A stretch of DNA of 20,000 bases, taken from Psammoneis japonica (taxonomy: Eukaryota). How positions within the stretch are numbered: position 1 is the stretch's first letter; every line of letters begins with the position of its first letter. Below, in pieces: positions 1 through 20,000 of the stretch. The stretch lies in assembly GCA_008632985.1 (NCBI GenBank), contig QPGO01000069.1, positions 418,442 through 438,441 on the forward strand. Reading direction: 5' to 3'. A program made the translations under genes and the position numbers. Under the pieces are notes generated by a model that saw nothing but the letters and a program-made list of their open reading frames with translations, did not search any database and was not told where the DNA came from.

Positions 1-2029
1 TCTGCACAAAGGGCATCAAATTGGTCATCCGGCGGATCATCTGCATCATCTGGCACCTCAACAGAATCATCCTCATCAAGAGACACGTCCGGGACAGACA
101 AAGCATTGACATCAAATGTGGCATGCTTGGGGTCTTCTTGATTCCGGTCCCATTTGTGGTGGATTGCAAGGATTTGCACAAGTGCAAAGTGAAGGACTGC
201 CCAGTTGACGAAGGAAGTCAGAAAGAGTTTCAACAATCTGAGCATCTGTGTGCTTCTTGAGCACACTTGTGGACTTCCATTCATCCCCAGTGGTGTGGGA
301 CAAGTGCTTGGAGCATTTGGTGTTCTTGATGAATGCAGTCATCTCTTGTGGATCATCTGATGTAGAGTCCGCATCAAAGACACAAGTGCACAACTGTGGA
401 AAATCATTGAAAACCATGTGGCAGTCCATCAATGACAGATTGCCTTGAGCAAGACAGGAATCTGCCAATCCAGCAGCTTCATGGTCAAAAGCTGGATGAT
501 TCTTGTGGACACTCTGCTTGAGAGCCTTGCTTCCATTGCCACAGCAGGAGGCAACAATCCGATGGTGCTTGCTGTTCTTGGGGAACATGTCTGACTTGGA
601 TGGAATCTTGTGGAGAGAACTCTGGGCTTCTTTGCAATGGACATGCACGCATTGATGTGAGTCATCATCCTTGCCGTTTCCAATCATGAAACCCTTCTCA
701 CCACCTTGATCCTTGGTGAAACACCACAAAGGGTGGACGCAGTGTCCTGAATTGAAAGAGTGGTGTTGGAAGTTTTGATGCCATGCCTGTGTCCCAGCAG
801 GAGAGTCATCATGACAGATGGGAGGTTCCCTGAACAACATTTTCTGATCAGGAGTTGAGCTCATGACATGAAGCATTCCATCATTGAGAATGATGTGATC
901 AGAAGCATCAACATGATGATGGAAACCATGGTCACAGTGGATGAGAAAACTCTTCAGGGCAGCCGCACCATGTTCCTTGCAGCCGCATTGTTCTCATGCA
1001 TCAGTGGGTGGAGTGTTGGGTTTGAAGAGACACTTCAATGTTGTGGATGATGTGGCACTTCCTGATGTCTTGGCAGTGGCAGTGGAAGGTGGAGCATGGC
1101 TCGACACAAACTTGTGGAGGGCTGTCGCCAAATCATTCACACTGACAGTCGCAGTTCCTGAACCAGTCCAGGATGAGGGTGCAGGCTGTTGCTTCTGCTG
1201 GTGGGGCCCAAGGGAAAACTCTTTCCAATCCTGATGATTCCATGTTGCATCTGGATCAACATGGATGTGTGAGCAGAGATGACAATGAATGAGGTCTGAT
1301 CATGACTTTCTGAAGGTTCATCTTGATCATGGATGACAGAGCTGCAGACATCAAACAAATTGCACAAGGCCTGTTGGGGTCTGCAATGCAGAACAGAGCT
1401 TGGTCCACAATCATTTTGATGGATTGCATGTCCGCAGGGTCCACCGTGCAAGGTGGAAACGCTTGATTGACAAGACAGTCTTGGAGCAAGTCTGCAACAC
1501 TCGTCTTGGGTCAAGCATGCTCTGGATTGTCAAAGAACGGGTCCAGATCAAATGTTGAATCCGCGTGGATCTCATTCAGGCATGCATGGAGATGTGGCAT
1601 CGTCGTGTGTGCTTGGAATTCACGCAACAGATCTCTGCAACAGACGCAGGAGCAGCCTTTGCAAGGTCGGGAGACGCCATGGTTTTACTTGGGGAAAACA
1701 TTTTTGGTCATGCACGTGCAGAAATCTGGCGTGTTTCTACGGTCGTGAAAAATGCGGGAAAACACGAAAAAATTTGTTTCAGGAACAAAGACGAGGCTTG
1801 CTCGATCGGCTCACAAAACAAATGAATCGAAACAGAAAGTGTGGCGCAGAGTTCTGTGACACAGCGCAAGGCCACAACCTGACAGAATGCCGAAGGTCAA
1901 TGACAATGGAGGTGTAAAAGACTCCCCAAGCACTGGGACTGTGACAACATGAGCACCAGCAGATGAGAAGTGAGAGGTCTGGTCATCATCCGTGCACATT
2001 CCATCCATCGTACGATGGACAGGCTGACA
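1..2029 (-). mobile_element. 5' part of a degenerate Ty1/Copia (diatom CoDi-like) LTR retrotransposon: LTR 2029-1880, PBS-like 1879-1868, leader, gag relic ~1680 to <1
   Basis: Minus-strand TGTCAG...CTGTCA unit (150 bp) immediately followed by GGTTGTGGCCTT. The same arrangement recurs at 13023-13285 and 13735-13939. The interrupted reading frame (EFQAHTTMPHLHACLNEIHAD, VADLLQDCLVN, GNGSKALKQSVHKNHPAF) is homologous to other relics in the window and resembles diatom Copia Gag (G.GY.AL..I...HP) once His/Cys are read as Tyr. Confidence 0.7.
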
Positions 2030-2102
2030 ACCCTCTGCTCTCTGCCGGCACTCTAGAGAGCAGATTGGCACCTCTCCCCTTGCAGCTTTGGCAGCACTGG
2101 TT

Positions 2103-2747
2103 AAACCAGGCCTGCGGGGAGCATTGACCACTTGTCTTTCTTTTTGTGGGTGTGGGTGTGTGCCGTTGCATGCTGCATTGCCTGTGCGCACGCAGGTGGC
2201 AGCGTGGCCACCACACCGGTGACGCGGATGACCGTTGTGTCTGATGTCTCATGCCATTTTTGGGGCTGCAGCGAGGTGCACGGACACTCTTTTTTTTCCA
2301 ATTTATCGCCACAATGGCGCATCGCACAAACTCACTTGTTGTTTGATGTGTTTTCCCAGTGTGACTGTCTCGTGCAGAATTCACGATTGATTGTCTTTGT
2401 TCACAACTGAGTGCATTTTTCAACATGCCACGCCGGCAATCCCAATTTTTGAGAACTTTCGAGCTCTCCTGAAAAACCGTGCCACGCACCCGTCGCAGGG
2501 AATTTGTCGATTTTTTAGGATGTCCCCACGACCTCTCATGTCCTCAATGATCATTCTGCGAATCCAAAGAATTCATCTGTGCCAGACAACCCATGCCGTT
2601 CCAAAATCTGAGGGACACACTTTCAAATTCAGATGGACTGCCCGACTGCCCGACTGCCCGACTGCCCGACTGCCTGACTGTCCGACTGCCCGACTGCCGG
2701 ACCGACACGAAAAAGTCTGCAATCACCAACCACTGAGTGGTCAATGA
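2103..2747 (-). mobile_element. Non-autonomous Helentron/HINE (DINE-1-like) element, copy A
   Basis: 11-bp subterminal inverted repeats CATTGACCACT (2122-2132) / AGTGGTCAATG (2736-2746), terminal hairpin ACCACTGAGTGGT, 8-bp tandem array CCCGACTG near that end, and minus-strand end GGCCTGGTTT. Near-identical to 2763-3419. Confidence 0.6.
2641..2696. repeat. 8-bp tandem repeat (CCCGACTG)x7; counterpart x6 at 3321-3368
   Basis: Read directly from the sequence; a few variant units (CCTGACTG, TCCGACTG, CCCGACCC). Confidence 0.95.
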
Positions 2748-2762
2748 AATGTGTGCTTGTGG

Positions 2763-3419
2763 AAACCAGGCCTGCGGGGAGCATTGACCACTTGTCTTTC
2801 TTTGTGGGTGTGGGTGCATGTGTGCCGTTGCATGCTGCATCAGGGCCCTGCTGCCGGGGCCGGCATTGTGGCGGCTGAGTGGCATGGCCACCGCACCGGT
2901 GACGCGGATGACCGTCACATTTGATGTCTCATGCCATTTTTGGGGCTGCAGCGAGGTGCACGGACACTCTTTTTTTCCAATTTATCGCCACAATGGCGCA
3001 TCGCACAAACTCACTTATTGTTCGATGTGTTTTCCCCAATGTGACTTTTTCGTGTAGAATTCACGATAAATTGTCTTTGCATGTAACTGAGTGCATTTTT
3101 GAACATGCCACGCCGGCAATCCCAATTTTTCAGAACTTTCGAGCTCTCCTGAAAAACCGTGCCACGTGCCCGTCGTAGGGAATTTATCGATTTTTTAGGA
3201 TGTCCCCACAACCTCTCATGTCCTCAATGATAATTCCAAGAATCCGAAGAATTCATCTGCACTAAACAACCCACACCCTTTCAAAATCCAAGGGACACAC
3301 TTTCAAATTCAGACGGACAACCCGACTGCCCGACTGCCCGACTGCCCGACCCCCCGACTGCCCGACTGCCGGACCGACACGAAAAAGTCTGCAATCACCA
3401 ACCACTGAGTGGTCAATGA
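2763..3419 (-). mobile_element. Non-autonomous Helentron/HINE (DINE-1-like) element, copy B
   Basis: Direct repeat of 2103-2747 after a 15-bp spacer. Same subTIRs (2782-2792 / 3408-3418), hairpin and CCCGACTG array (3321-3368). Confidence 0.6.
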
Positions 3420-3610
3420 TCTGCACCTGTTTCTGCGGACCCCTTCATACCCTGCACTACATCTGAACCAAATTCAGTAGACCAGATTTTCGATGACTAG
3501 GAAATTTGTGCCAAGATGAAACGGGAAACTCTAACCTAAAGTACAAGCATGAATTTGCTGAAATCTGAGAGAATGCATTATGTTTAGTTGTGAAGTGTGG
3601 TTGATCTAGT

Positions 3611-6321
3611 TCATAGCTTCTCAATCTCAGCCTTGAGGTTCTCGGGGGACATGCCGAGCTCCTTCATGACAATGTCACCTGGGGCAGAGAATCCGAAGCG
3701 ATCAACTCCGATGACATTGTCGGCGTACTTGTACCAGAGTCCAGAGACACCGGCTTCCATTGCAATGCGCTTGGTGCACGAAGCAGGGAGGACGCTTTCC
3801 TTGTAGTCATCGCTCTGGCGTTCGTAAAGCTCCATGCAAGGCATAGAAACAACACGGGCACCTGGCATGTCAGCGGTGGCCTTAAGTGCGTGCTGAACCT
3901 CAGATCCAGTGGCAATAACAATAACGTCCAAGTCTTCAGTCTCCTTCTTGGCAATGTATGCTCCCTTGAGGGTTCCCTCACGACGTTCAGCAACGGACAA
4001 GTCGTTGTTCTGGTCGACATTTTGACGAGAGAAGATCAAGGCAGTGGGTCCCTCCTTGCGGGTGACAGAGTGAACCATGGCGGCAACAGTTTCCTCGGCA
4101 TCAGCAGGGCGCATGACATCAACATTAGGGAAAACACGGAGACCACTGACGGTCTCAACAGGCTGGTGGGTAGGACCATCCTCACCAACACCAATAGAGT
4201 CGTGGGTAAGGATCCAGGACACACGGTTGAGCTCAGCAAGACCAGCAACACGGACAGTAGGACGGAAGTAGTCAACAAACACAAGGAAGGTAGATCCAGA
4301 GATCTTGAAAAGACCGTGGTAAGCAAATCCGTTCATGATGGAACCCATGGCGTGTTCGCGGATACCGAAGTAAAGGTTCTTTCCAGCGTAGCTCTTGTCG
4401 AAACCGGCGCCGAAGTTTCCTCCGTCTTCGATGTAGTTACGGGTGGAGCCATGAAGGTCGGCGGATCCAGAAACGTAATACGGGACGGCCTTGGAAATTT
4501 CCTGAATGGCCTTGTTCTGAGAGACACGGGTGGCCTCGGCATCAGTGCCCATGTCGGGGATGGACTTGATCATTTCCTCGGCAGAGGCAGTCTTGTCATT
4601 GATGGCATCGTCAAGCTGCGAGGCAAGGTCGGGGTTGGCCTCCTTCCAAGCGGAGAAGGTCTTTTGCCATTCATCGTAGGCAGCCTCGTTCTTGGCCTGT
4701 ACGTCCTTGAAAAAGTCGCGGGTTCCTTCCGAAACATACCACTTTTCTCCATCAGGAAGACCAATGTTCTTCTTGGCCTTGTCAACGTAAGGAACACCGG
4801 CTTCTCCGTGAGCAGCGTTGGTTCCCTCGGTTTCTTCCATGCCCTTACCAATGATAGTGTTGCACTTGATGAACTTGGGCTTGCCGTTGTCGCTGGCCTT
4901 GGCGGAAGCGATGGTTTCCTCAACAGTGGCAAGATCGTGACCGTCAATATCATAGACTTCCCATCCGTACGCCTCGTAACGCTTGAGAATATCCTCGGAC
5001 TGAGTGTACTCCGCCATCTTATCAAGGGTGACCTCGTTGGCGTCGTAGAGAACAATGAGGTTATCAAGCTTCTCGTGGGCCGCAAAGGCAGCAGCCTCGG
5101 CGGAGACACCCTCTTGGAAGCAACCATCTCCAGCTAGAGCAAAGATGTGGTGGTCAAAGATCTTGTGGTCATCGGTGTTGTAAACTGCCTCGGCCATCTT
5201 CTCGGAAGCGGCGAAACCAACCGCGTTGGCAACACCCTGTCCAAGGGGTCCCGTAGTGCACTCAATTCCGGGTGTGTTGTGTTCAGAGTTGGGGAACTCG
5301 GGGTGACCAGGGGTCATGGAGTGATGTTGACGGAAGTTCTTCAACTCCTCCATGGGGAGGTCGTATCCGGCAAGGTTGAGCCATGAGTAGATGAACATGG
5401 AGCCATGTCCGGCAGAAAGGATGAAACGATCACGGTTAATCCATTCGGGGTCCTTGGCATTGTAGCTCATCTACATTTTGTGAAGAGAATTCGGAAAAAG
5501 AACAAAGTCGTGAGCGCAAAAAATCGAAACGACATCATATCACTTGCGGTCGCCAGCCCACGTCACTGATCGCAGTAGAAAGTGTACAGATTTCTACGCG
5601 CGACAAATGGACTCAGTACCTGACCACGTATGTGTTTTCAAAAAAGGAACGCAATGATGTCTCACGTACCTGGGAGCCGTAAAGCGAGGCACCAATCTCA
5701 GCAGCACCAAGAGGAAGACCCATGTGTCCAGAGTGAGCTGCAGCAATGGAGTCCATAGCAAGACCACGTGCTTCGTTGGCAGCAGTGGCGAGAGCGGCCA
5801 AAGTGTCCGTCTCGGTGGCAGTGCTCATCTTGAGAACATTGCTCTGCATGACACCAAGAAAGATCGAGAGTATACCAACAAGCATAATGGACCAAGTAAA
5901 TGCATTAATATTGGAGAGTATCATTGTTTCATTGTCAAGAGTGCGTACGAGAGAGAAAACGGGGAGAGAAAAAATGTGAGTTAGTCGTAGGATTCTGAGA
6001 AACTTGCTCCATGCCACACAAAATCCGACAAATCACATGCAAGACAAAATAGCTGAATTTCTCCAAGTCAACAAGCGATCATTGCAGCCCTCGCTGTGAC
6101 GAAGCAAGTCGACAAAGACTGAACGTCGTATTTCCTTTGCAGGCGCGAACCAGAAGGTGTTTTCCCGACACAGTTACGGGGAACAAGCGCATATTGTGCA
6201 TATCTTTCTTGTTACGTACCTGGCGGACTGCAAAGCGAGCAGATTTAAGAGGAGTTCCGGCAAATCCGTTGACACCGGCGGACAAAGCCGTCGCGGCGAT
6301 AGCAAGCATGGAGAACTTCAT
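3611..6321 (-). CDS. TKL: Plastid-targeted transketolase, 3 exons (6321-6220, 5843-5670, 5470-3611), ~711 aa
   Basis: Transketolase motifs [40 protein letters not shown] (ThDP-binding), [24 protein letters not shown]. Two phase-0 introns with GTACGT donors (6219, 5669) and CAG/TAG acceptors (5844, 5471) join in frame. N-terminus [30 protein letters not shown] is a signal peptide plus Phe-initiated transit peptide, typical of diatom/heterokont plastid proteins. Confidence 0.95.
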
Positions 6322-6664
6322 CGTGAAAGAAAGCGTGGTTAGAGAACCCACAAGCTTTTTATGAGAAGGCATCAATCAAAGCCGAATGGTTGTTGTGCAG
6401 ATCAACAGCGCGACACGTACGTACGCGTCGTCGACGTTGGATCTTTATTTTTTTCGTGGCGGGAAAAAGCGTGGCGAAGTGCCACCTTTCCTTCACTCTT
6501 TCCCATTGAATACTAATTTTTTCGAAACAGATGGAGGAATCGTGGCCAAGATTCAATCTTTTCAAAAAACATTCCAAATCACAAGTCCGAAGCCAAGATT
6601 CCTTCTCAAAAGATTCCTGTGGTGACGGGCAGACCGCCCGAAAATGCTGAACTAAGATAGATAG

Positions 6665-7281
6665 ACAGACAGTCGCGACGACCAGACTGTTGGCAGGGGT
6701 TGGCCACGACATGTCATTCGTTCATTCAAGCAAAGCGGAAGACTTCACAGTTGAACAATGCAGAGCAGATTGAGACTGGTGAGGCCCGAACACAAAACGA
6801 AGACGAGGCTGTCCCCAAAATCATCTGTGGGAGGAGGCAAAATGCTGCTTTGCATTGGTTTTTGCTTCCAGCATGCAGGCTGTGGCTGCAAGCCAATGTG
6901 CGCCAGGCTGCCCATGTTGTGACTCCTCCTCCTCACTGTTTCAAGCTGGAGGCAGGCCAGAGTTTTGCAACCGTGCCAGGTTCTTGTAGGAGCAAAACGC
7001 TGCGTTGTTGTGCCGCACAGTGCATGCTGGCAAGGACAGAGCAGCTGCTTTCTCTCTTTTCTCTGGAGGAGAAAGCTGGCCAAGAACAGCTCTTTGCCCA
7101 GACTCCTCTGTTCTTCGTTGGCATCTCTTGACCCTTCAACAACTGGGAAGTGAAGAGAGTTCTTGCTCAATGCCACTGGCTGCCCTCCATCTCCTGGGCA
7201 CTGCTGCCATGCTGTTTGTCAAATTTCGTGTCTCTCAAATTTCTCTGAACAGATGGACCTGCCTTGTTGTTTGTGGTTTGA
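6665..7281. other. TpA-depleted island of unknown origin in the TKL/ASF1 divergent intergenic region
   Basis: Only one TA (~6987) seen in ~620 bp, with TA common on both sides. No termini or family motif confidently recognised. Confidence 0.6.
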
Positions 7282-7679
7282 CTAATCAAACGTCTTTCAA
7301 AAGAGTTTATTTTTATCTTTTGATGAGTGCCGTTGCGTTGTGTTGGGTTTTCTCTGCCGTGTGTCTTCGAGCTCCGAAAAGTAAACCTCGCGCGCCAGGA
7401 ATGAAGAGAAAGCAAGCCCGTAGAATTTGTACCTGGGTGCTACCACCCGGTGATCGAGCTGTCGCGTTGCGTTTCGCCGCATTTTCTGCTTCAGCTTCAG
7501 CGACGACACAACACCCTTGATCGGTTTGTGCTTTGAGAGTTCGACACAGCGTTTGCTATTCTTATCGCTATACCAGCCGTTTCTCAGCAGGATCATCTCT
7601 ACGTTTATCAGTCATTTTTGCTTCGAGTTATTCCGAAATTAGCAATTAGAACTGCATCATACAACATAAATCTTTCACA

Positions 7680-8484
7680 ATGGCGCTCGTCAATGTATGC
7701 AACATGGTAAGTCACCGCAAACGCTCTGCCCGATTCGTAAGGAGGCAATTGCCGCACTCAATGTCTTTTTCTTGTATATAACGCACCAGGTGGTTCTCGA
7801 TAATCCAACAAACTTTAGCAATCCGTTTCAATTCGAAATTACCTTTGAATGCTTACAAGAGCTCGAAGACGGTACGTGAGCAATCTCTGTATGAGACTTG
7901 AAGCTAGCTCCTTATCTATCACCCCATAAACCTCACAGCTTTTCCCGTTATTTATTATAGATTTGGAATGGAAGGTGCTGTATGTTGGCTCAGCAGAGTC
8001 ATTTACACACGATCAAGTTCTGGATGAAGTCATGGTGGGTCCGGTGCCGGTGGGCCTCAACAAGTTTGTCTTGCAGGCGGACGCCCCCGATCCACAATCG
8101 ATTCCTCGTGAAAGTCTCTTGGGGGTCACGGTGGTCTTGGTTACTTGCAGCTACCGAGAACAGGAGTTTGTTCGGATTGGATACTATGTCAACAATGAAT
8201 ACGAGGGACACGATGCAACTCAGGAAGACGCTCCTCCACTCCCAGAGACGCTCGATATGAACAAGGTGTTGAGAACAATCTTGGCGGATAAGCCACGTGT
8301 CACGAGATTCCCCATTACGTGGAATAGCGACGGCAGACAGGCTCAGCAGGAAGCACAAGGCGATGAAAACATGACGTCTCCGGCCAAGGTTGCTGATGCG
8401 AATACTCATGCAGCTTCTGAAGATATGGATATTGGCACAGGTATGCATGTGGTTACACCCATGGATACCGCCATGCAAATGTAA
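7680..8484 (+). CDS. ASF1: Histone H3-H4 chaperone ASF1, 3 exons (7680-7706, 7790-7871, 7961-8484), ~210 aa
   Basis: Spliced product MALVNVCNM-VVLDNPTNFSNPFQFEITFECLQELED-DLEWKVLYVGSAES..HDQVLDEVMVGPVPVG..KFVLQADAPD..GVTVVLVTCSY..QEFVRIGYYVNNEY..KPRVTRFPITW matches the ASF1 fold. Canonical GTAAGT/GTACGT donors and CAG/TAG acceptors keep frame. Confidence 0.95.
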
Positions 8485-8920
8485 AGCAGATATTTTGCTC
8501 ATGGCATGATTCTTCGGTTTCGTTTTATTTTCAGAAGAAACATGATATTGTAAGTCCTACAAGTTGAGACAGGGGTGATTGGTGGTTTACCGCAACAATT
8601 ATTGAGCTTCTGTTAGGTATGTTGTAAACTAAGACACCAGAGACACGGGATATAGAAATTGAGCCAAACAAGAACTATCGCTTTAGCTTGAAAATCGCTG
8701 TTAAATTGTAGCTTGCAGCAAAGTCACTCTTGAACCTCTAAAGCACACACGCGACGACGATTCAAAGCTCTTGTCGAGAAACTGAAAACTAAAATACATG
8801 TTTTCTCTACCGACAATCCATTCTTATGTGAGAAAACCAAAGCCCTTATGCCCCCATCGCGTGATTGCTCTTGTTACTCACGTAGCCGTCTATGATTTTC
8901 ACCGAAAGCTTGTAAGTTTT

Positions 8921-9205
8921 CTACCGTTGCATGTTGGTTGGCCTAGCTCCACCGTCGACCCGTTTATCCCACATTTTGAGCCATGTACACAAGGTACAGG
9001 TACGTTCAAATAGAAACGGCTTTGACCACTGCTTGTCTGGAAACCCATCGCGGGCCTTTGTTTCGCGGCAGTATCCGCACATAACCATACCGACAACATG
9101 ACGTTGCCTCTTGCAGGGAGGCTCTGATGCGTCGGAGTGACGGATCATATGATGGCTGTTAGTTGTGTCAACCATGACGACGTCCGGTACGGATTCGACT
9201 TGCAT
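8921..9205 (-). CDS. Putative small (94 aa) zinc-finger protein, CxxC..K..F..QW..R.CxxC (Stc1-like finger)
   Basis: ORF from ATG 9205 reads MQVESVPDVVMVD...PPCKRQR (NLS-like)...CGYCRETKARDGFPDKQWSKPFLFERTCTLC. It lies in normal-composition DNA, head-to-head with the BAP31-like gene (~325 bp apart) and tail-to-tail with ASF1. Confidence 0.55.
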   Translation of the reverse strand: MQVESVPDVVMVDTTNSHHMIRHSDASEPPCKRQRHVVGMVMCGYCRETKARDGFPDKQWSKPFLFERTCTLCTWLKMWDKRVDGGARPTNMQR

Positions 9206-9531
9206 GATACCGAGTACAATCCCTTTCTTACACACACAAATGTCTCTCGACAGACTCTTGAGAAATGAAGTGAGAAGTGAGAGCGTCGCTTTGTCGCTTC
9301 AGAAAAAACCGAGGGAAAAAAAATGGCGCGAGGAGACCACAAGCAGAGAGCTCGCGCTGATGACGTCGACCTCGCAAGATTTCATTCCGGCCCGATTCGA
9401 TATTCATTCCCGCCAAAAAAGATCGCCTACTCGCTACTCGCAGAAGCATCAACAAAAAGGACTCAAACCGAAGCGTTTAGAGCCACTTGAGTAGATCGTT
9501 TGCATACACACATTCTATACGCTCTATCATC

Positions 9532-10092
9532 ATGGGACCTGGATGGACACTGTACCTGTTTCTCATGCTGCCACTCCCACTCTTGTCGGTGATGCTTCTC
9601 ACGACGTGCGGCAGGTGGGGTTTTGTGCGAAAGGCGTGTCGAGGCGCCAGCAGTCTGAGCTTTAATGTGGGAAGCTTGGAAATTTCACTCCGCTCTGTTT
9701 GTTTCACGATTTCTGTTATCATGTTTTTGCTTTGCGCCAGAGCAACTACCCAAGTCGCCATGCCAGTAGACGAAGTTCTTTTGACTCCAAGCAGCAAAAT
9801 ACAACTCTATTCCAAAAAGTGGAGAAATGAACGTAATTTTTGGATTAGTGCTCTCATTCTCATCTTATGGTATGTTCTCGGTGGATTGATGAGACTTCAA
9901 GAGGAAAATGCATTATTACGAAACGTGCTCGAAGAACTAGGTTGCGACTTGACGGAATTTCAAGCAAATCAACAAGCCCAGGGGCGAGCGAAGAAGGACA
10001 AAGAGCAACCTGCGAGAGACCCGAAGGACAAGCCAAATGGTAAAACGAACGAAAAACAAGCTTCATCTGGCGAGACAAAAAAAGACAAATGA
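9532..10092 (+). CDS. BAP31: BAP31/BAP29-family ER membrane protein, 186 aa, intronless
   Basis: Three hydrophobic segments, KWRNERNFWIS motif before the third helix, a coiled-coil-like stretch (LQEENALLRNVLEE) and a C-terminal di-lysine ER retrieval signal KKDK. Confidence 0.8.
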   Translation: MGPGWTLYLFLMLPLPLLSVMLLTTCGRWGFVRKACRGASSLSFNVGSLEISLRSVCFTISVIMFLLCARATTQVAMPVDEVLLTPSSKIQLYSKKWRNERNFWISALILILWYVLGGLMRLQEENALLRNVLEELGCDLTEFQANQQAQGRAKKDKEQPARDPKDKPNGKTNEKQASSGETKKDK

Positions 10093-10376
10093 TAGAGAGG
10101 AGTCCATTTTGGCGTGAGGAATCGATCCTGCCATGAGGACAGTTCGTTCTATTAAGTAATTATTGACAGACCCCCACGACCATTATATTGCGGTCATGGT
10201 CTTTTATAATGAAACCTCTATTGACTATGCCCCAGTGTTCAACAATTCGTTAATCGCCAAAGGCTATATCTAGCTTTTTAGCTTCTACTCTCTGCTAGAG
10301 CTAGAATAGTACGGTACAGTAGTAGTAGCTCTCAATTGCGACCAAATTTGAATAAAACATGCCACGCGGCAATTAA

Positions 10377-10780
10377 GGCGGACCGTCGGCTTATTTTTTT
10401 CGCACGTCTTTCCGGGTTTTCAGCATTTTTGACGGGTCGCGACAGAAAATAACACGACAAAAGCACGAGCGACAATGATGATGTTCGCGACGAGCGGTGA
10501 GTTGCAAAGTATCACCTCACGAGGGACACTCATTGGTTTTATTATCATGATGTGGTGCAGATTGATTCACATGCTTTCGTCCCTCGTGCCACTGGGCCAA
10601 TTTTGAGAGACAGCGCAATGGCCGTCATCGTCGTGCTTCGATCGCGGAGCATGGCTGTTCTCGTTTTTCGAGGGCGATCGAACAATTCTTGTATTTAAAA
10701 TTAACAAATGTAAATAAACGCATCCAAACACAATGCCAATTTTAGGATCAAATGCTGAAAAAATATGTCGGCGGTCCCCC
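10377..10780. mobile_element. 404-bp MITE with ~23-bp imperfect TIRs and TTAA target-site duplication (Kolobok-like GG..CC termini)
   Basis: TTAA(10373-10376) GGCGGACCGTCGGCTTATTTTTT ... AAAAAATATGTCGGCGGTCCCCC TTAA(10781-10784); 19/23 TIR match. Internal inverted pair CACGAGGGAC / GTCCCTCGTG. Confidence 0.75.
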
Positions 10781-11010
10781 TTAAACGCTGGGGCCCTGCT
10801 TTGTTGAGGTTGGAGTCCTGTGCTGTCAAAAACATGAATCGCGCCCGCCCACATGCATCGCGAGGTTGGATGCAGCTCTCTGACTCAAGTCACATGAAAC
10901 ACAACCCTTGGAAATGCTTCGCCACCTTCCTCATGCCAGCTTGCAACTCCTTTTCTGAACAAGCCAGAGGCCTGCTGACAGACATCCGAGATGGGGAGTG
11001 CACTCCCTTG

Positions 11011-11520
11011 TGTCGGACAGACTGGCACAGACAGCACAGAGAGATCCGATGATCTCTCTCTGCTCACTTTCTTTCTCATCTGGTGCACAATCATCATCTG
11101 TCCTAGATGTCCGTTGGATCATCCCGACACCGCCAGTCCGCAAGGTTGTGAGCAGCAGTGCGCTGTTTGTCTTCCTCAACACAGCTGCGCTGCAACGTTC
11201 ACTGTGTGATTTGGCGACGTTTCTCCGTTGAAATCGTCATCTTTGTCACAGCCATTTTTCTCACTCGATTTGTGATCATCACGACCACCGTAGACCACAC
11301 ACCAGTGTTCTGCGCGGGATTTTGATTTTTTTCCCGCGCAACCATGGTGCCGACTGAGCAAACTTCTGTCGATTTGACCAAGATCAAGTCGACACAGGTC
11401 GAATTCAAACCGCAAAATCACTTGCCTGATGCCCATCATTGCCTGAATGCACTTCATTCAGATGCGACACCTGCTCCTGAAGATCTTCTGGATGGTCTTC
11501 AATCTTGTTCATTCACCCAT
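11011..11520 (+). mobile_element. Truncated Copia relic: LTR ~11011-11142, PBS 11144-11153, leader, gag start at 11344
   Basis: Begins TGTCGGACAGACTG and is similar to the reverse complement of the 13747-13939 LTR. Followed by GGTTGTGAGC (cf. half-tRNAiMet PBS GGTTATGAGC). The ORF EFKPQNHLPDAHHCLNALHSD aligns with EFQAHTTMPHLHACLNEIHAD of the 1-2029 element. Confidence 0.65.
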
Positions 11521-12149
11521 GCCAACCTCCCCAACTCAGCCCCGCCAACCCTTCTCCTGCGCTCAAGCCGCCAAGCAACCTTCCCAAGACACCCATTCTG
11601 AAACCACCTTTTCTCTCTTTGCTGTGTCTTGGCACCCTCCTCTGCCCTCCTGACTCTCCTCACCTGCCCAGAAGTGCTTCTTCCCACCCTGCCGAGACAT
11701 TGACACCAACACTGATGCAGAAGCTCTGTGCCGCACCTCTTTTCACACCACCTCTTGGTTGGAAGGGGGTGCTGGGTGAGGTGGAGGTGCCAGAGGGCTC
11801 CATTTCTGGAGGGTGGACCTGAGGAGTTGGGGCTGTGATTGGAGCAAATGGCTTCTCTTGCAGCAGGGCAACCTGCTCCAGGGAGTGACAGGTGACATGG
11901 CATTGAGCACGTGCAGCAAAGGTGTGTCAACAGCATGGCAGTCATGTTGGCAGTGAACAAGATCCATGCTTTCAGAGGGGGTTGTGTTGTCAGGACCTGG
12001 CCCACCTCCTCTGGGACCATCTTGTCATGGCCCACAAGCACCAAAGCATTCTTTGAAATGTCCTTCTTGACTCCTTCTTTGAGCAACACAATCTTTGCCC
12101 TTGTTGATGCCATCAAAAAATGCTGAGATTTGTCTGTGCAACTCCTGCC

Positions 12150-12850
12150 TCAATGCCCACATTGCCAACAAGCACCATTGCCCCCACACCTCTGCCAGCC
12201 TTTGACTCATGTCTTCTGGCCACCCTTCAAAAAAAAATGCCTGGCTGGACCTCTTCCCTCCAGTGGCCTGAAGCCCTCACTCTCACACCTTTCCCTTTTT
12301 TGAGCCTCCCTCTGGCACAAGCTGTCCTCATCCTCCTGCCTCCAAGCTTGTCACACCCTCCACCCTCTCATCAGCATTGACACCTCTGCCCCCTTTTGGA
12401 CAATGACTCCCCTCCCCTTGGCAAACCTCTTCAGCCCCTTGTTGGAAACTCCTTTTTCTTTTCAAGTCCCTTGTTCTTTGCCCCCAACCCAAGACATCTG
12501 ACCAGCCACACTTGTTCTCTGCCCTCATCTCCAAGTGCCTTCCCTTTTTTGAAACAGCCCAGTTTGCTCTTTGGATGACTCCTCTCAAGTCTCAAGCAGA
12601 GCCTCCCCCACCACCCCTTCTGATGACCCACCCAATTTGATGCCTCTTTGCCAGCATCCCAACCAGCACCATGACCACCATCTTCAATGGCCACCCTTCC
12701 TTCAGCATGAAGGTTTTGTCCAAGGTTGCCCCCCTGGCCCCACTTTCTTGAGCCTTGTCCTCATGTGTGTGCTCACCCCACTTGACCAAGAACTGCATGC
12801 CAGTGCTTCTTCCCTCCCCACTCCTCCCCAGATCCAGCACACCAGCCATT
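12150..12850 (+). mobile_element. CRE-like non-LTR retrotransposon relic, reverse transcriptase N-half
   Basis: PLGKPLQPLVG (~12410-12450; cf. RPI..G..LRRL) and QHEGFVQGCPPGPTFLSLVL (12703-12762; RT motif G..QGCPLSP). Strongly C/T-rich sense strand. Boundaries approximate. Confidence 0.6.
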
Positions 12851-12879
12851 GGAGTGCAGATCACAGACAGAAAATGGAA

Positions 12880-13285
12880 GGTGTCATTGTTCTGCAGGCT
12901 GAAAAAATGGTCGGGAGACAAAGAAAAATCCTTTTGGGAACAAAAAATGATGTTGGCTTGATTGGATCACAAAATGATGGAGTCAAAAAGAGAGCACATC
13001 ACAGAGTTCAGCAACACAGCTCAAGGCCACAACCTGAAAGAGTGCTGAAGGGCAAAGAGAATGTGGTGACATGACAGGCTCCCCAAATGCTGGGGCTGTG
13101 GCGGTGGTGCAAGCACCAGCAGAAGAGAATGAGAGGAGGACAGCAATGTGGCAGACTCCATGAGCACCAGGGCTGTGACAACATGAGCACCATCAGAAGA
13201 GAATGAGAGGTGGATCTCAGAGAGATTTGCTCATCAGTCCAAAAGGGTGGTCTGGTCATCATCCATGTTCAGTCTGTCCATGGTG
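12880..13285 (-). mobile_element. Copia LTR (partial, ~13285-13035) + PBS-like (13034-13023) + leader fragment
   Basis: Clear nucleotide similarity to 1770-2005 (CAGAGTTC..ACACAGC.CAAGGCCACAACCTGA, CTGTGACAACATGAGCACCA, GGTCTGGTCATCATCC). Confidence 0.7.
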
Positions 13286-13289
13286 TGAA

Positions 13290-13939
13290 GATTGCTTTCT
13301 GGAAAAGATTTGCAACCAGCAGCTCTTCTGCAGGGTCTTTGGTCTCTGGTGGGCTCACATGATTGAGGGCATGTTCTTGCAAGAGATCAGCCACAGCATC
13401 TTATGATTTTGCACGTTTGGCATCACAAAAAAAAGTTGAGCCCAACGGTTCTTGAGCCACCACAAAGGCAGCACAAGTGCTCAGAAGCCCCACTGCAGTG
13501 AGGACACAGTTGGAACACTGTGCTGATCTCCACAAGGGAGTCAACGACAGTCTTTTTGAGGGTCAGATGTGCCACGGTGGAGGGCAAAAAATGCACACAC
13601 ACCACAAAACAATTTTGTTGACAATGCTGGGAAATGTCAGCTGCAGAAACAAAAAATGGGCTGGCTTGATTGGCTCACAAGCAAAACAAGCCATGGTGGA
13701 ATTTTCAACACAGAAAAGAGCACAAACTGCTCACAAGGCCACAACCAGTCAGAACAGCAACAGCCAGCTGAGCTGACAAGCACAAGAGTCCTCTCTGTAA
13801 ACTGGCAACAGCAACAACACATGCACTGGTGAGAAAGAGTGAGAAGAGCAGATCTCAGAGAGATCTCACTCATCTGTCTGAAGGGTCTGGCTGTCATCCA
13901 TGTGCAGTCTGACCATGTGCAATGGTCAGTCTGCTGACA
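13290..13939 (-). mobile_element. Copia relic: LTR 13939-13747 (TGTCAG..CTGACT), PBS-like 13746-13735, leader and gag N-terminus
   Basis: Shares AAGGCCACAACC and LTR sequence with the other copies. Minus-strand VADLLQEHALNHVSPPETKDPAEE aligns with VADLLQDCLVNQAFPPCTVDPADM at ~1500-1425. Confidence 0.7.
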
Positions 13940-15200
13940 CTCTCACAATGACAGCCCAGCTTGCTGCCTCTCTGTTTCTCTTGGCAGCGCTGGCTGCCAT
14001 GACATTCCTGATGCTGCAGCTGTCCTGCCCTCTCTCCATCTCTCTTGCCCACTCTCTCCTCTTTGCCAAACAAGGCATCCACTCAACAGGTGCTGACCAA
14101 CACTTTTGCCTGCCTCCCAGCTGGTCTGCTGCCCTCTCCTCCTGGTCTGACCCGTGCCAATTTTTGATTCCTTGCCACTGCCCTCTTCCAACTTGACTCT
14201 CCCAGCTTTTCCTCTGTGTCTTCTTCTGTCTCCAATCACATCCTCCACAGTCTTCCTCAACAAACAACCCAACTTTGCTGTCATCAGCACAGTGCCCTTC
14301 TCCTGCTCCTGTGCCATCCTGACCTCCAACTGGCCCTCTCTTCCCATTTCTTTTTTCCTTGCTAACTTGTGCCTCCATTCCCTCTCACAAGCCCATCCAA
14401 GTGACCATCTCTCATCCTCGTCCCATGTCTCCCTCCTCCTCTTCCTCTGCAAGCTCCACCCCCCTGCTGTCCTCCCTCCAACCTCTGACACACCTGCCTT
14501 GTTGCCCCTGTGGACAGCACGGCTCAGAGATCCCTTTGGTGGCCATGCGCTCACTTGCTCCAAGATGCGTGCAAGGGCCCTCTCTCCAGTGGCGTCTTTG
14601 ACAAAATCTGTGATGTCATTGAAAACTGCGGTCCTCTCAGCAGCATTTGTCACTCTTGTCATCTCATGTCCTTCTCAAACTGCTGGCTGGTCATCCCAAT
14701 CCCTGACTGCCATCTCAAGTGACCTGCCAACATTGAAGCACAGCTTGCGCCAGGCTCAATGTGGCCTCCCTGTGCTCTGTGCTCCCTCCATCCACCACTT
14801 CCTTGCTTTCAATGTCATGGTCCCTCCAGCTCCTCCCCATCCTGCACTTGGTTGCCTGCTCCTTCCAGCTCACTTGCCAAGGCTTGCCTCAGCTGCACTT
14901 GTGACAACCTTCTGGGGTGCAGCGCCCCTTCCAACAGCAGCTCTTTTGTCATCATTGCAGTCAACCAATCCAGCCTTTTTCTTCTCCCCTTCACTCTTGA
15001 TCACTGGGGTGGAATGGGCTGCCATTTCCACACCCTCTTCTTTGGCCACTCACCCAACAACTCTTCCTCTGTCCCACCCCTGCATCCCAAGCTCCCCTGG
15101 AACAACCAGTCCAACTTCTCTCATTCTCATGCTTCATTTTTTTCATCCCACAAATCTTCTCTTGCTCCTTTTGCCAGTCAACCTCCTTGTCCAAGCCACC
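13940..15200 (+). mobile_element. CRE-like non-LTR retrotransposon relic, C-half: RT thumb, CCHC finger, restriction-like endonuclease
   Basis: In order across frameshifts: VSLGSAG (cf. LP...GGLG, ~13975), CPCG..DPFGGHALTCSK (14503-14564), DKICDV (cf. H..IRD), K*PANI (cf. RPADI, 14717-14734), LAFNVMV (cf. AFDVTV, ~14805), PFTLDHWGGMG (14987-15019). Confidence 0.65.
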
Positions 15201-15944
15201 ATCACCTGGAAACAACTTCCCGCCAATTGTTTTGGCTCTGTCCATCATTCATCTGCCCCCCAGTCAATGGTCTGTTCAATTTCTTGGTGCCTCAACCTTG
15301 GCCTGGCTCTTTCCAACCACCTGCCAATCCTTTCTTTGCTTTGCTGCCCCCCTCTGCTTCCTTCCATCCATCTGTCTGCATCTCTGAGCCCAGCCTTGTT
15401 TTCCAAACCCAGTCACCACACACACTTGCACTGCCCCCCTGATCCTTTTGTGCTGCAATTTTCCCTTTGTTGCCACAAAACAACTTGGCCAAGTTGGAGC
15501 AGACCCTGATGGCTTCTGCAGCATTGCACAATTGAGTGGCAAGTCAATGCTTCCACACAGACATCTGCTTGTGTCAGTGCCTCCACATGCAAAATGTCAA
15601 GTGACTGTTGCATCCTGCAGCCTCATTGGAGCTCTTTTCAAATGAAAAGAAAGGCGCCATTGGTGCTGGGAGGCAGAACACAGCAGCGCACACTCTCAAG
15701 AAAAGAATGACAGGTGCAAAAACAGAGCAGAGGAAAGAAAAGCAACCACACAATGATGGCTGATTTGTCATCATCCATCCATCCATTTTCATCTTGTGGC
15801 AGAGAATTTGGATGTTGGATGTGAGCCCAATGAAAACTTCCATTGTCCAGATCATGATGGATTGGGGGGGGGGGGGGGATCTCTTGCTTGTTGCAGTGCT
15901 TTCATGTGTGCCAAACAACAGATTGTCAAAGGCTGGCTGTTGTG

Positions 15945-16190
15945 CCAAGTTGAATGCCATCTGCAATGCCACCCCACAGTGTCATGTTGAAATGCTGGCC
16001 ACCACCACATTGTGTTGAATGCCATCTGTGCAGTGTCATGTTGAATGCTGGCCATCATCATGTTGCATCAAACACCATCTGCAGTGTTTTGTGCTGTCAT
16101 GTTGAGTGTTGAATGCTGGCTGTCACATCACATCAAATGCCGTCCTGTGTGTTGCGTCAAATGCCAGCTGTTGCATCATGTCAAATGCAG
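15945..16190. repeat. Degenerate minisatellite with core (TG/CA/CG)T(TG/CA)AATGC
   Basis: Repeated TGTTGAATGC, CATCAAATGC, CGTCAAATGC and TGTCAAATGC units with variable spacers. Confidence 0.75.
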
Positions 16191-16415
16191 TTGATCAAGA
16201 TGCTTCAGAGCAGCAAAGTTCAGTTGACACATCAAAAAACAAAATTAGACAAACCAACAGCAACAGAGGCACAGGTGAAAAAGTTGTCAAAATCATTGCT
16301 GCCTGCTTCACTTTTCTTGCTGCATTCTGGAACCCTGGCCTTTTGAAAAAGTTGTGGGCTCTTGTTGGCATCATTTCTGCCAACACAAGCTCATGACCCC
16401 AGTCCCTTGCAGCAT

Positions 16416-17294
16416 CTAAATTGCGCTAATTCCACCTTGCATGAGCTTCCCACTGTTGCCCTCAATGAGGTCACAAACTCTGTTGGAGATGTGAACAGAT
16501 GCATTGTCTGCAACCACAGCCAAGCCTGGTTCATAAAGACAGCATTTCCAAAGTGCAGGAACCACTTTTTCTTCCACACGAGCCTTGAATCTGGCCATGT
16601 CCACTGTTCCACATTCTGTGTCTTTGTTGTTGGGATGATTGCGCACATGCTCCACCATCTTGCAAGATTCTTTCACAAACCCAGCATGTCATCAGAGGCA
16701 ATTGGGGGTTGCACCACTTGTGGAAATCTTTCTCAAAATGCAAATCAACCACAGGTGGATTGTCCAGTTCCTCCCACCCTCCAGCAGGCACATTTTGTTT
16801 TGGCTGTTTCATCAAGAAATGCAGCTGTTGTGGGTTTTGGTGGGAACACATCCAGCCATCTTTGATGCCACTGCTTTTCAGCTTCACACCTCTGTTGGGC
16901 ACAGACTGCAGCCTTCTACAAGCTGTGGCCAAGTCAAAACAGTTGGCACCATGTGTCACTTGGGCTCCATGTTTTGCCATGTCTCTCCTTTCTGTTGCCA
17001 GCTGCATCTCATCAAGGTGCAAATGGGGCATCTCTCTTTGATGGCATGGAGCACATCATGATTGTCAGCTTCAGAAAATGAACAAGCAGCTCTTGTTGTG
17101 ACATCATGCCATCTTTTCCAGCTTCTTGCTCTGTGATGAGTTTCAGCTTTCATCTCACCAGGCTGGAGCAGATGAAGCCACTTCCAAAAGGTTTTGCATG
17201 GGGTGCTCTTCATCCAAGAGCCATCTGTTTCCTGCCAATCATCTTTGTTGAATGTTTGCACTTTGTTCCCATCATTCTTGCCAGCACAGCTCAA
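16416..17294 (-). mobile_element. IS630/Tc1-mariner-type (DDE_3) transposase relic, frameshifted and 3'-truncated
   Basis: In order: PHLHLDEMQ (cf. P.LYLDE.Q, ~17030), FLDETAK (first catalytic D, ~16810), GFVKESC, GTVDMARFKARVEEKVVPAL, VVADNASVH (second D, ~16505), RVCDLIE. The PYSPDLNPIE segment is absent. Confidence 0.75.
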
Positions 17295-18257
17295 AGACTT
17301 GCCACCTGGCTAATCTGTTGTTGTTTCAACGTGTGCCTTTGGGATTTTCTTGTCATCATGCTGAACTCCACCATGGCTTCATGAGGCTGGAGGACACAAA
17401 CAAGCAAAGCAGTGCACTCCAGGTTTCACAGACCCCCCTGAATTGCATTGATTCTTTCTGTGCCCCCAAAATGGTTTTTGCTTCTTTCTTCTTGCCACAA
17501 AAAGAAGCCAGAGCAACCGCGATGCAGGAAGCTGCATCAAAAAAAAAAGTGCCATTGTTTGCATGGTGCATGACCACAACAAAAGGAGCACAGATTGTCA
17601 TGACAACAATGCTTGCCATGACAGTGCAGCATTCAGACACTCTTCTCAGTGCAACAAACAAATGATGTGAGCCACAAAAGCCAGTGGATGAAGCCAAATC
17701 AACAAAGCACAAACAACATGGCCAATGGCATGTGGTCAAAGCCCACAATTGTGTGGTGTGCAAAATGACTTTTTGTTGTGTGATGACACAACAATGCAAC
17801 AATCAGGCCTTTCTCAATGCAGTGAACAAACAATGCAGGCCATGAAAGCCAACAGATGAAGCTGAGTCAATGAAGCACAAACAACATCGTGGGGCTGCTG
17901 ACAGATGCAAAAACACGCAACATCAGTGGAAGTGGCTCTTTGAGTGCTTCTCAATGAGCCCACAATCAATTTTTGAAAAAAAAGGCAAAAAAGCAGATTC
18001 TTGCATTGATTTCTGATTCAATGATGCCTGGCTGAATTTCAAAAGAGGTCAAATGGGGACAAAAGTGTGACAGCATCTCAACAAGTGCCACTGTGTGGCA
18101 CAGCTGCATTGAAAAAACTCACATTTTGCTTCTGCACATGCAAGATTTCATGCTTGGGGCAAAGTGTGCAGAGTGCTGGAGGGGCAAAAGTTGCAAGCTC
18201 AGAGTGGGGTTAATGGCAAAGAACAGAGACAATGGCAACAAATGCACGTGCACACAC

Positions 18258-18395
18258 GTGGTGCCACAAGGGCATGTTTGGTTGGAGGGTGATGCCCCGT
18301 TGTGCTCAACAGATTCCTGTCATTGTGGTCTGCCCAGCTCATTTGCAAACTTGCTTTGAGGTTGTTTGGGCTTTTGTTTGTGGCCTCTGGGGTGA
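18258..18395 (+). pseudogene. Fragment of mitochondrial inner-membrane peptidase IMP1/IMP2 (S26) C-terminus
   Basis: VVPQGHVWLEGDAPLCSTDSCHCG..LL*GCLGFCLWPLG versus family consensus VP.GHVWLEGDN...S.DSR.YGP....L.GR...R.WP; internal stop. Confidence 0.75.
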
Positions 18396-18779
18396 AGTCT
18401 GGACATGCATGGCTCCTCCAGTCTGTTTCTTCAATGAGAACAACCTGTGCTGCTGCTGTCGCCAGAACAAATGCTCTGAGACAGATGATGCAAGCTTCAC
18501 AGCTGACCTCACTCTGAATGGCCGCGGTCCAAAGTCAATGAATGCACTCTGTTTGTGCTTGACTGCCAGCCTGGCAAAGGCAAAAAGACACAGACCTGGT
18601 TTAAAGTTCTGTCACACCATTGACTGGCATGTTCAACATGGGCCAACCCACACTTCTGGCACACTGACATGCAGCAGAAGGGGAAAGGATTGGCCAGAAC
18701 TGGCATCACCTGATGGCAACACCTTTCAGAAATGACTGACAATGGGGTGGGCACCACAAATTGCAAAGTGCGTCACCTC

Positions 18780-19870
18780 CTTGATTGTGCTCCATTTGAG
18801 ACAACGCTTGCATGCAGAAACCCAGCTCTGCATTTTAGCCACACAGAGTGGGTGGGGTGTTTTCCTCTGCTGAGTCCAAAAGCAACTCTTGATCCTCTGC
18901 AAAACGGTTTTGACACCTGTTGCACACAGCCATGGATTCAGCCTCAGGAGCAAGACAATGATGTTGAGAAGTCTTTCTTGAGTCAACATCACAACCATGA
19001 ACTTGTTTGTTGTGTGACTGCCACATGCTGTGTAAATTGTGGGGAGCACAAAGCACTGTTGGGTGGCACCAGATGTTTAACAGGTGCCTGCTCAAGTTCT
19101 GGAACACTTTCCAAACCACTCACCTTCATGAAACTGGAGCCCACAACAAGCACCAAGCTCAAGAGGAGAACAAACCCCCTCCTGATTGAGTGCTCTAAGT
19201 TGGGCACTTCATTTGGAAATTGTGATGGGAGGTGCCATTTCATCATGGGTCCAAGCTTCAGGTGCAAAGAAGAGAAAATCTTCTGGAGAGGATGTGTGTG
19301 GTGTCAAGTTTGTTGCCATGCTTGTGAAGCCCTTGAGGGAACTTCCCATGCTGAGGCTCATCCGAGGGACACTTGACAGCGTGGTCACAGTCTTCCATGG
19401 GTGCTCACAAGACAAGCATCAGTGCCATCAGGCAGGATTGCACCTGCAAAGAACAATCTGTTTGTGGAAGAAGCAGACACAAGTGTCATCTGTTCTGACA
19501 ATGAACCAAGCTGGCGTGAGCGACCGTCCAGTCAATGAGAGCTGAGTCAGATGAGTGTTGCCAGCTGCACTCACACATGCACTCCAACAAGGGAGAAGCA
19601 ATGGCAGCACATTGCTTGGGGGTGCTTGAGCCTGGCAGAAACAATGCCATCTGATGACAAAAGTCAAGCTTGACAGCAAGGAAAGGGAGTTGCAACAGGC
19701 ATGTCATGAGAATGTCACCCATGAAGCTGATTGGCCAATCCATCAACTCCAACATTGACCCAAGCATTGAGGGGCAACAAGTCTACCAGGGATGTGCAAT
19801 TTTGATGACTTGTGAACCAAGACACTGGTGAGCCAACCATGAGGAGGAAGAATCCAAGTGAGAAACAATG
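18780..19870 (-). mobile_element. 3' part of an RNase H-containing non-LTR retrotransposon ORF2 (Ambal-like), degenerate
   Basis: In order: WFTSHQ...LPLNAWVNVGVDGLA (RNase H C-terminus, 19819-19730), CLSC..P.EDCDHAVKCP (CCHC knuckle, ~19420-19366), MWQSHNKQVHG (cf. W..RN...HG, 19027-18994). Boundaries approximate. Confidence 0.6.
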
Positions 19871-20000
19871 GCACACAACAGCTGGCAAACTTTGTTGACA
19901 ACACCCCAGTCTGAAGATGGGACATGTGCGCTGACAGGATTTGAACAGGATTTGGGGTGCGCGCGAAATGTCGCGCGCTGTTTGTTTGCCGCGCACAGTT

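Follow-up and report, generated by a model that had tools for sequence, protein, structure and literature searches.

Two dinucleotides have been removed from the repeat DNA of Psammoneis japonica over territories that do not coincide. In the 20,000-nucleotide stretch analysed here (the window), TA loss follows the outlines of repeats, without leaking into the unique flanks, while CG decay stops short of the repeat ends that face genes. The reading that we favour, with a probability of roughly 0.6, is that two independent mutators with different territories both drain into TG and CA, with element age adding to their effect.

The window consists of a gene island between two blocks depleted of TA and CG, in which G+C content is unchanged. 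On the right, positions 10785-11700 hold 2 TA against 52 expected by composition (observed/expected, o/e, 0.04) and 38 CG against 63 (o/e 0.60), and the core beyond (11701-19950) holds 16 TA of 526 expected and 46 CG of 505. The TA count of this margin is far too low for the gene-island TA rate (P(≤2) = 1e-10); its CG count is far too high for the core CG rate (P(≥38) = 3e-19) and also somewhat under the island level (P = 5e-4). The initial annotation was thus correct in describing a right margin without TA in which CG is largely kept, and a core without both. Change-points on the right lie at 10783 for TA (2-log-unit interval 10783-10826) and 11570 for CG (11412-11608), and on the left at 2983 (2905-3016) and 1433 (1389-1562), respectively. 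On the left too, TA loss reaches past CG loss, but this margin is not TA-free as far as 3420, as had been proposed, since 2981-3419 retains 10 TA (o/e 0.33). A third margin, at 19955-20000, is too short to inform, because only about 2 TA are expected in 19951-20000 and zero fits chance (P = 0.33). That segment closes a repeat whose summed depth in run X1, 35000-41000, is greater than that of any other in the window.

Throughout the depleted DNA, TA stands at o/e 0.03-0.04 and TG/CA at 1.5-1.8, and AA/TT shows no depletion (1.10-1.25). TA o/e is 0.45-1.09 in the island versus 0.00-0.15 in the elements, a mild TA deficit being present everywhere (island o/e 0.47-0.63), and the non-coding DNA of the island is CG-rich (CG o/e 1.1-1.2). 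Surviving TAs in depleted DNA are more often flanked by T or A (19 of 28 versus 98 of 243, P = 0.008), possibly a sequence preference of the TA process.

One sample, sequenced in three coded runs, provided contigs for comparison. X2 contigs skip two introns and were read as RNA-derived, though labelled 'DNA?'; they leave the margins uncovered, and no conclusion is drawn from this. Five single-depth X1 contigs differ from the depleted stretches at 0, 6, 1, 8 and 14 positions in 721, 989, 961, 2063 and 3788 bases, a comparison in which X1 may be the source sample; as far as testable, the depletion is not an assembly artefact. The genes of the island are given in Table 1 with the other features; the named homologues of the transketolase, at 83-86% identity, are from diatoms. 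The unique flanks on either side retain TA (o/e 1.09 in 10101-10371 and 0.60 in 3420-3610) and the TA edges are repeat edges, from which it follows that TA loss is confined to repeats. The initial annotation had suggested that TA erasure spreads further than CG decay. The geometry is better described the other way round: it is CG decay that stops short, and the nested zones arise because it spares the 5', gene-facing part of elements.

Table 1. Features of the window (two figures separated by a slash are observed/expected counts)
Feature	Position	Strand	Remarks
Interior of gag-like ORF of element L	170-1433	-	TA 1/85.9, CG 11/72.4
5' end of L gag frame (ATG 1680)	1434-1680	-	TA 0/13.9, CG 12/17.1
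Leader and LTR-like end of L	1681-2102	-	Leader CG 13/15.6, TA 3/19.6; LTR-like part CG 4/10.7
dup1, inner copy of 660-bp tandem pair	2103-2747		11-bp inverted ends; TA 2, CG 36
dup2, outer gene-side copy	2763-3419		TA 10, CG 37
Transketolase gene	3611-6348	-	Pfam; spliced X2 contig; 3' end toward left margin
TA-less single-depth block between two genes	6663-7282		TA o/e 0.03, CG o/e 0.38
ASF1 histone chaperone gene	7680-8484	+	PF04729, E 5e-50
BAP31/29-like gene	9510-10227	+	Weak Pfam match, E 5e-4; 3' end toward right margin
413-bp terminal-inverted-repeat (TIR) element, TTAA-flanked	10372-10784		38-bp imperfect inverted ends; TA o/e 0.46 (part lost), CG o/e 1.54 (kept)
LTR-like end of retrotransposon remnant R	10785-11080	+	TA 0/15.9, CG 10/21.4; putative LTR, from its place before the PBS-like motif
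PBS-like TGGTGC (11081-11086, putative PBS) and 5' leader of R	11081-11343	+	TA 2/15.9, CG 18/16.9 (all kept)
Gag-like ORF of R, first 50 codons, then broken off	11344-11493	+	TA 0, CG 6/8.9
Start of unrelated single-depth DNA	11496-11740		Last CGs are decaying
Core, mosaic of old repeats	11741-19950		TA 16, CG 45 among 1886 YR steps; mostly near single-copy depth at 80% likeness
Core copy C1 of LTR/leader	12890-13161	-	CG 2 vs 16 in left-margin copy; CG to TG/CA 9, reverse 1
Core copy C2, more distant subfamily	13645-13950	-	CG 1 vs 11 in left-margin copy; CG to TG/CA 9:1
CG-rich end of very high-depth repeat	19951-20000		Too short for TA-loss test

One LTR-retrotransposon-like family, represented by its LTR end, its leader and the start of gag, appears to make up both margins, together with inverted-repeat elements. 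In reverse complement the right margin can be aligned to 1542-2057 of the left one at a score of 131, against a shuffled maximum of 51.5, and a PBS-like TGGTGC is present in both. The sharp TA change-point at 10783 is explained by the right end of the TIR element, within which TA loss is already partial, outside 10785. Its other copies in X1 and X2 have TA where the window has TG or CA in 8 of the 17 listed differences, CG against CA in one and the reverse in none; this is a selected sample, 40 of 1131 differences being listed. Remnant R follows. Its gag start matches positions 3-43 of the family profile (E 9e-5), a conserved Tyr column reads His, and homology ends near 11493. At site 11092 the window has CA and all 22 X1 contigs aligned there have TA. 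Two short palindromes lie in the leader and LTR-like end of R, at 11311-11338 (CGs kept in both arms) and 11039-11059.

The right CG boundary is the junction of two elements, with the gag homology ending at about 11493 and a single-depth contig starting at 11496. At 11543, 11560 and 11693 an X1 contig has CA or TG, so that at least 3 of the 6 CGs of 11496-12484 differ, among 6 differences in 989 bases. These are transitions of the CG to TG/CA type, as 5-methyl-CG deamination predicts, and they imply that CG just inside the boundary is highly mutable; remnant R, outside it, retains 34 CGs. Within the right remnant alone neither CG nor TA shows a change-point (P = 0.47 and 0.79, respectively). 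Because the boundary is an element junction, the right-margin coordinates of the initial annotation cannot part age from position, and the left margin is the informative one.

There, a 660-bp tandem pair lies next to the gene. Eight TA sites are unique to dup2 and none to dup1 (8:0, P = 0.008), and of the 10 TA sites 8 are missing from dup1, against just 5 of the 38 CG sites (P = 1.2e-4). Six of the eight TA differences are TA against TG or CA and two are transversions; the direction was read without an outgroup, and 8 TG/CA mismatches fit a TA or a CG origin. The direction of change is TA to TG or CA in the TIR element, at site 11092, in most of the TA differences of the tandem pair and, as described below, in the conserved Tyr columns of element L. 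The 11-bp inverted ends of the tandem unit (in dup1 at 2122-2132 and 2737-2747, in dup2 at the corresponding positions) contain TTGA at one end and TCAA at the opposite one; by eye, these would fit a former TTAA target site changed at TA.

Further inside lies element L, in which the match to the family runs in a single frame from 1627 to 1322 and so spans the CG boundary at 1433. CG occupies 13 of 63 YR sites on the gene side of that position and 11 of 303 in the interior (permutation P = 0.001), and TA is found at 1 of 366 YR sites over the whole of L gag. The interior is not generally decayed, because 46 of 57 control columns are kept versus a median of 0.83 in 43 reference relatives; among conserved columns it has kept 0 of 8 Tyr and 1 of 10 Arg, and over element L Tyr has become Cys or His in 9 of 9 scorable conserved columns. 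Many copies of 80% likeness still exist for this interior (summed X1 depth 704-1234 versus about 57, a rough copy measure). TA is uneven along L (1/367 vs 5/99, P = 0.015). CG retention peaks in the leaders (1.07 and 0.84) and is lower in the outermost LTR parts (0.47 and 0.37), and so follows anatomy rather than distance. Gene distance and element anatomy are confounded, as each of the two margin elements has its 5' end toward a gene.

The CG boundary on the left thus falls within a single collinear gag frame, and age by itself does not account for this. Age is nonetheless the strongest competitor, although we consider it unlikely: both processes would cover the same DNA, TA erasure being some 5-13 times faster, and young insertions would lie at block edges. 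Summed X1 depth, a rough copy measure, is 2872-9311 in the left margin and 4508 in the right, against about 57 in the genes and across much of the core, which is what an age gradient would give. On the right, the TA and CG boundaries both fall where two elements meet, the outermost elements show just partial TA loss, and core copies C1 and C2 are without their gag. An early count of unique transversions (L 6, C1 37, C2 40) made the core copies look far older but proved an alignment artefact. Anchored realignment gave 7 for L, 10-12 for C1 and 33-34 for C2, the distant subfamily; C1 shows no clear excess over L (10-12 vs 7 of 194 columns, or 7 vs 5 of 177 with four copies), in a weak test for which a small age gap would suffice. 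Against age alone stand the CG step within one frame and the tandem copies, which are of shared origin and differ in TA by position. Element L, the one element that supplies the within-element test, could be chimeric, with a young 5' part joined by recombination to an older body.

Evidence from outside the window comes from the proteins related to the gag-like frames. The family comprises 642 proteins at E ≤ 0.001, of which the best 150 were listed. Its members end in C-x2-C-x3-H-x4-C, a zinc-knuckle-like motif, and Retrotrans_gag/zf-CCHC is found in the Atlas clusters closest to it, at a score of 0.87 that amounts to no more than a lead. Pfam searches of 27 members gave no family beyond one weak DUF match, no relative of solved structure was found, and DNA of gag relatives was not confirmed in metagenome contigs, viral contigs or prokaryote genomes. 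The window contains no pol, second LTR, Rfam family or tRNA, and none of the 103 stop-to-stop frames of the depleted blocks passed the cut-off when scanned against Pfam. A weak DDE_3 transposase match (E 0.029, under the cut-off) lies at 16419-16688 on the minus strand, and a decayed minus-strand frame at 12770-12850, with no Pfam match, has a QFLVKW motif that presumably recalls a chromodomain. Loose ends of X2 contigs resemble core stretches 15663-15692 and 17708-17731 but, by eye, show TA and CG where the window has CA or TG, which suggests intact, possibly expressed relatives of these stretches.

Of 155 gag relatives 7 were too short, leaving 148 scorable, with Arg only a proxy for CG. Both residues are intact in 132, 7 have lost Tyr and kept Arg, 7 have kept Tyr and lost Arg, and 2 have lost both. 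The Tyr-lost set, from five clusters, retains 10 of 85 Tyr and 100 of 123 Arg; the Arg-lost set retains 32 of 40 Tyr and 9 of 56 Arg, one member, from Nitzschia inconspicua, being scored on 6 columns only. At the level of protein sequence this double dissociation appears to run across lineages. Two 97%-identical relatives (P0126 and P0272) differ at 21 of 689 columns; six of these are Cys/His swaps, and Arg is the same in 52 of 52. Such swaps would be the mark of independent TA to TG and TA to CA hits on one Tyr codon. One Tyr-free gag-like member (P0175, MDX1409856.1) lies on a contig of 1181 bases that is assigned to a bacterial metagenome-assembled genome, and is probably a mis-binned eukaryotic fragment.

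TA change is therefore independent of G:C to A:T change in the margins, the tandem pair and the gag relatives. That the two losses are separable, as first suggested, is borne out by the tandem pair, by relatives with either loss alone and by mutation-accumulation data from the alga Bigelowiella natans (Mettrop et al., bioRxiv 10.64898/2026.01.13.699255). The further proposal that TA loss is no by-product of CG decay agrees with dup1, with the Tyr-lost, Arg-kept relatives and with B. natans. For the margins, so does the proposal that TA loss is the faster: -ln retention is 2.5 for TA and 0.33 for CG in the right remnant and 2.4 and 0.19 in dup1, a crude rate ratio of 5-13 on an assumed ancestral o/e of 0.6 (TA) and 1.0 (CG).

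Of the five differences of a 5393-base X1 contig, four lie in 6987-7315, every one at TA or CG, in the single-depth block that separates the transketolase promoter from that of ASF1. This 620-bp block (6663-7315) is a hot spot: 2 of its 5 TA sites and 2 CG sites differ in X1, whereas the remainder of the contig differs at one CG site and at 0 of 166 island TA sites. A second cluster lies in apparently unique intergenic DNA, where 8 of the 10 listed X1 differences of contig 8851-10372 fall in 8916-9176. Three TA sites differ at 9089-9176: TA against TG (9089), TA against CG at both bases (9160-9161) and TG against TA (9176). This stretch is possibly an early target.

Co-occurrence of TA and CG differences in the small block 6663-7282 would fit a single trigger with two zones, in which TA loss is collateral damage from long-patch, error-prone repair of T:G mismatches at methylated CGs up to at least 1 kb away. 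Such a coupling would also account for a TA zone that reaches 0.8 and 1.5 kb past the CG zone and fades toward the gene. Polymerase eta-like error-prone resynthesis acts in somatic hypermutation, but polymerase eta also hits AA, and AA/TT is undepleted here. TA loss ends at repeat edges, full-length gag relatives have lost Tyr with Arg intact, and just one change of 231 in the hypermutable regions of B. natans, as the preprint describes them, is other than A:T to G:C (bioRxiv 10.64898/2026.01.13.699255). We regard repair coupling as improbable.

Still less probable is that decay was even throughout and that 5' ends were CG-richer from the start, or that CG motifs were selected in active master copies. 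Leaders and promoters are indeed CG-rich here (compare the island non-coding DNA and the TIR element), and a search of metagenome, viral and prokaryote sets for an intact family DNA copy by which to gauge starting CG found none. However, the homologous leaders C1 and C2 of the core lost CG site by site (Table 1), so that their low CG was not inherited, the copies are dead and under no selection after insertion, and the spared zone takes in 250 bp of coding gag (CG at 12 of 62 YR sites vs 11 of 303, P = 6e-5). That the TA deficit simply follows, mathematically or through mutation, from CG decay, or was introduced by the assembly, is scarcely credible despite TA being mildly low everywhere, given TA at 0.04 where CG is 0.60-0.72, X1 contigs that reproduce the depleted sequence, a CG decay that feeds TG/CA and would raise TA, and Tyr-kept, Arg-lost relatives in which CG decay alone leaves or adds Tyr.

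Two independent mutators remain the reading that we prefer. The first would be a TpA-specific A:T to G:C process that covers repeat DNA right up to the edge of the element and rapidly removes most TA without requiring any CG decay; its chemistry, most simply, would be deamination of adenine to inosine on either strand. The second would be deamination of 5-methyl-CG, with CG lost only where DNA is methylated, presumably by a DNMT5-type activity on transposon bodies as in Phaeodactylum. Gene-facing 5' ends (the leader, the first 150-250 bp of gag and adjoining inverted-repeat elements, 0.7-1.5 kb) would be spared from CG decay, and older or deeper-lying copies would finally lose both dinucleotides. 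The nested zones would then mark the strip that a TA mutator covering whole repeats reaches and a narrower methylation domain does not. As the TA territory is wider than that of CG decay, 5-methyl-CG is unlikely as its guide, leaving RNA, histone marks or repeat pairing as candidates.

It is conceivable, though we put it at somewhat less than even odds, that diatoms of this lineage have a second, methylation-independent layer of genome defence, in which adenine editing recognises repeats as whole units and reaches the promoters and gene-proximal copies that methylation spares. If so, the sequence itself would be a readable map in which TA loss means 'recognised as foreign' and CG loss 'methylated', and, judging by the five clusters of Tyr-less gag proteins, other lineages would share it. 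A protein-level screen (Tyr lost, Arg kept) could find the TA process in metagenome data. Caution is due in annotation, as TA-erased transposons retain long open frames and get annotated as genes. In our searches, with most subscription journals outside them, neither TA erasure in diatoms nor a nesting of TA and CG zones turned up; genome-wide dinucleotide plots that supplement the B. natans preprint may bear on CG in that alga.

Among known systems, repeat-induced point mutation (RIP) of ascomycete fungi is also repeat-directed and dinucleotide-specific, and kills transposons by transitions. RIP, however, uses cytosine chemistry to make TA from CA/TG, the opposite direction, and leaks into unique flanks, which are spared here. 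It would raise TA and is therefore rejected.

Diatom methylation offers a closer parallel to the inner zone. Diatom transposons are CG-methylated by DNMT5 (PMC9998398), and in the Cyclotella methylome repeats occur in a hypomethylated zone upstream of genes (PMC5124317). These methylomes are divided in two, with repeat blocks methylated and gene islands not, which resembles the layout of the window, where methylation is deduced from sequence. DNMT5 methylation predicts decay of CG to TG/CA in element bodies, as seen in the core leaders and in 11496-12484, but explains the inner zone only; the passages on diatom methylation in these papers are silent on TA loss. The spared elements here adjoin gene 3' ends, in contrast to the upstream zone of Cyclotella (PMC5124317).

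For the outer zone, the nearest relative is the TpA hypermutation of integrated viral DNA described in B. natans in a 2026 preprint (Mettrop et al., bioRxiv 10.64898/2026.01.13.699255); by the searches made, this one rhizarian alga is the only organism in which targeted A-to-G mutation of nuclear DNA has been published. According to the preprint, two viral inserts gained 231 new mutations, of which 230 were A:T to G:C, all at TpA, at a per-generation rate raised about 1000-fold and in some lines only, and an ADAT-like (ADAT2-like) adenine deaminase is proposed, as yet unproven. Features of this type found here are the TA to TG/CA direction, confinement to repeats with genes spared, and independence from G:C to A:T change. 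As in B. natans, TpA becomes TpG or CpA on both strands of foreign or silent DNA, with no accompanying excess of G:C to A:T; TpA-poor genes of B. natans itself are enriched in reverse-transcriptase and DDE domains. Unlike there, the targets here are LTR and TIR elements in a diatom-like genome, and erasure is near-complete (o/e 0.03-0.05 vs 0.45 in the viral region). The rate of TA mutation was measured in B. natans and is one that we infer here. Finally, TA loss is here overlaid on a CG decay with its own inner boundary, whereas the words 'CpG' and 'diatom' do not occur in the main text of the preprint.
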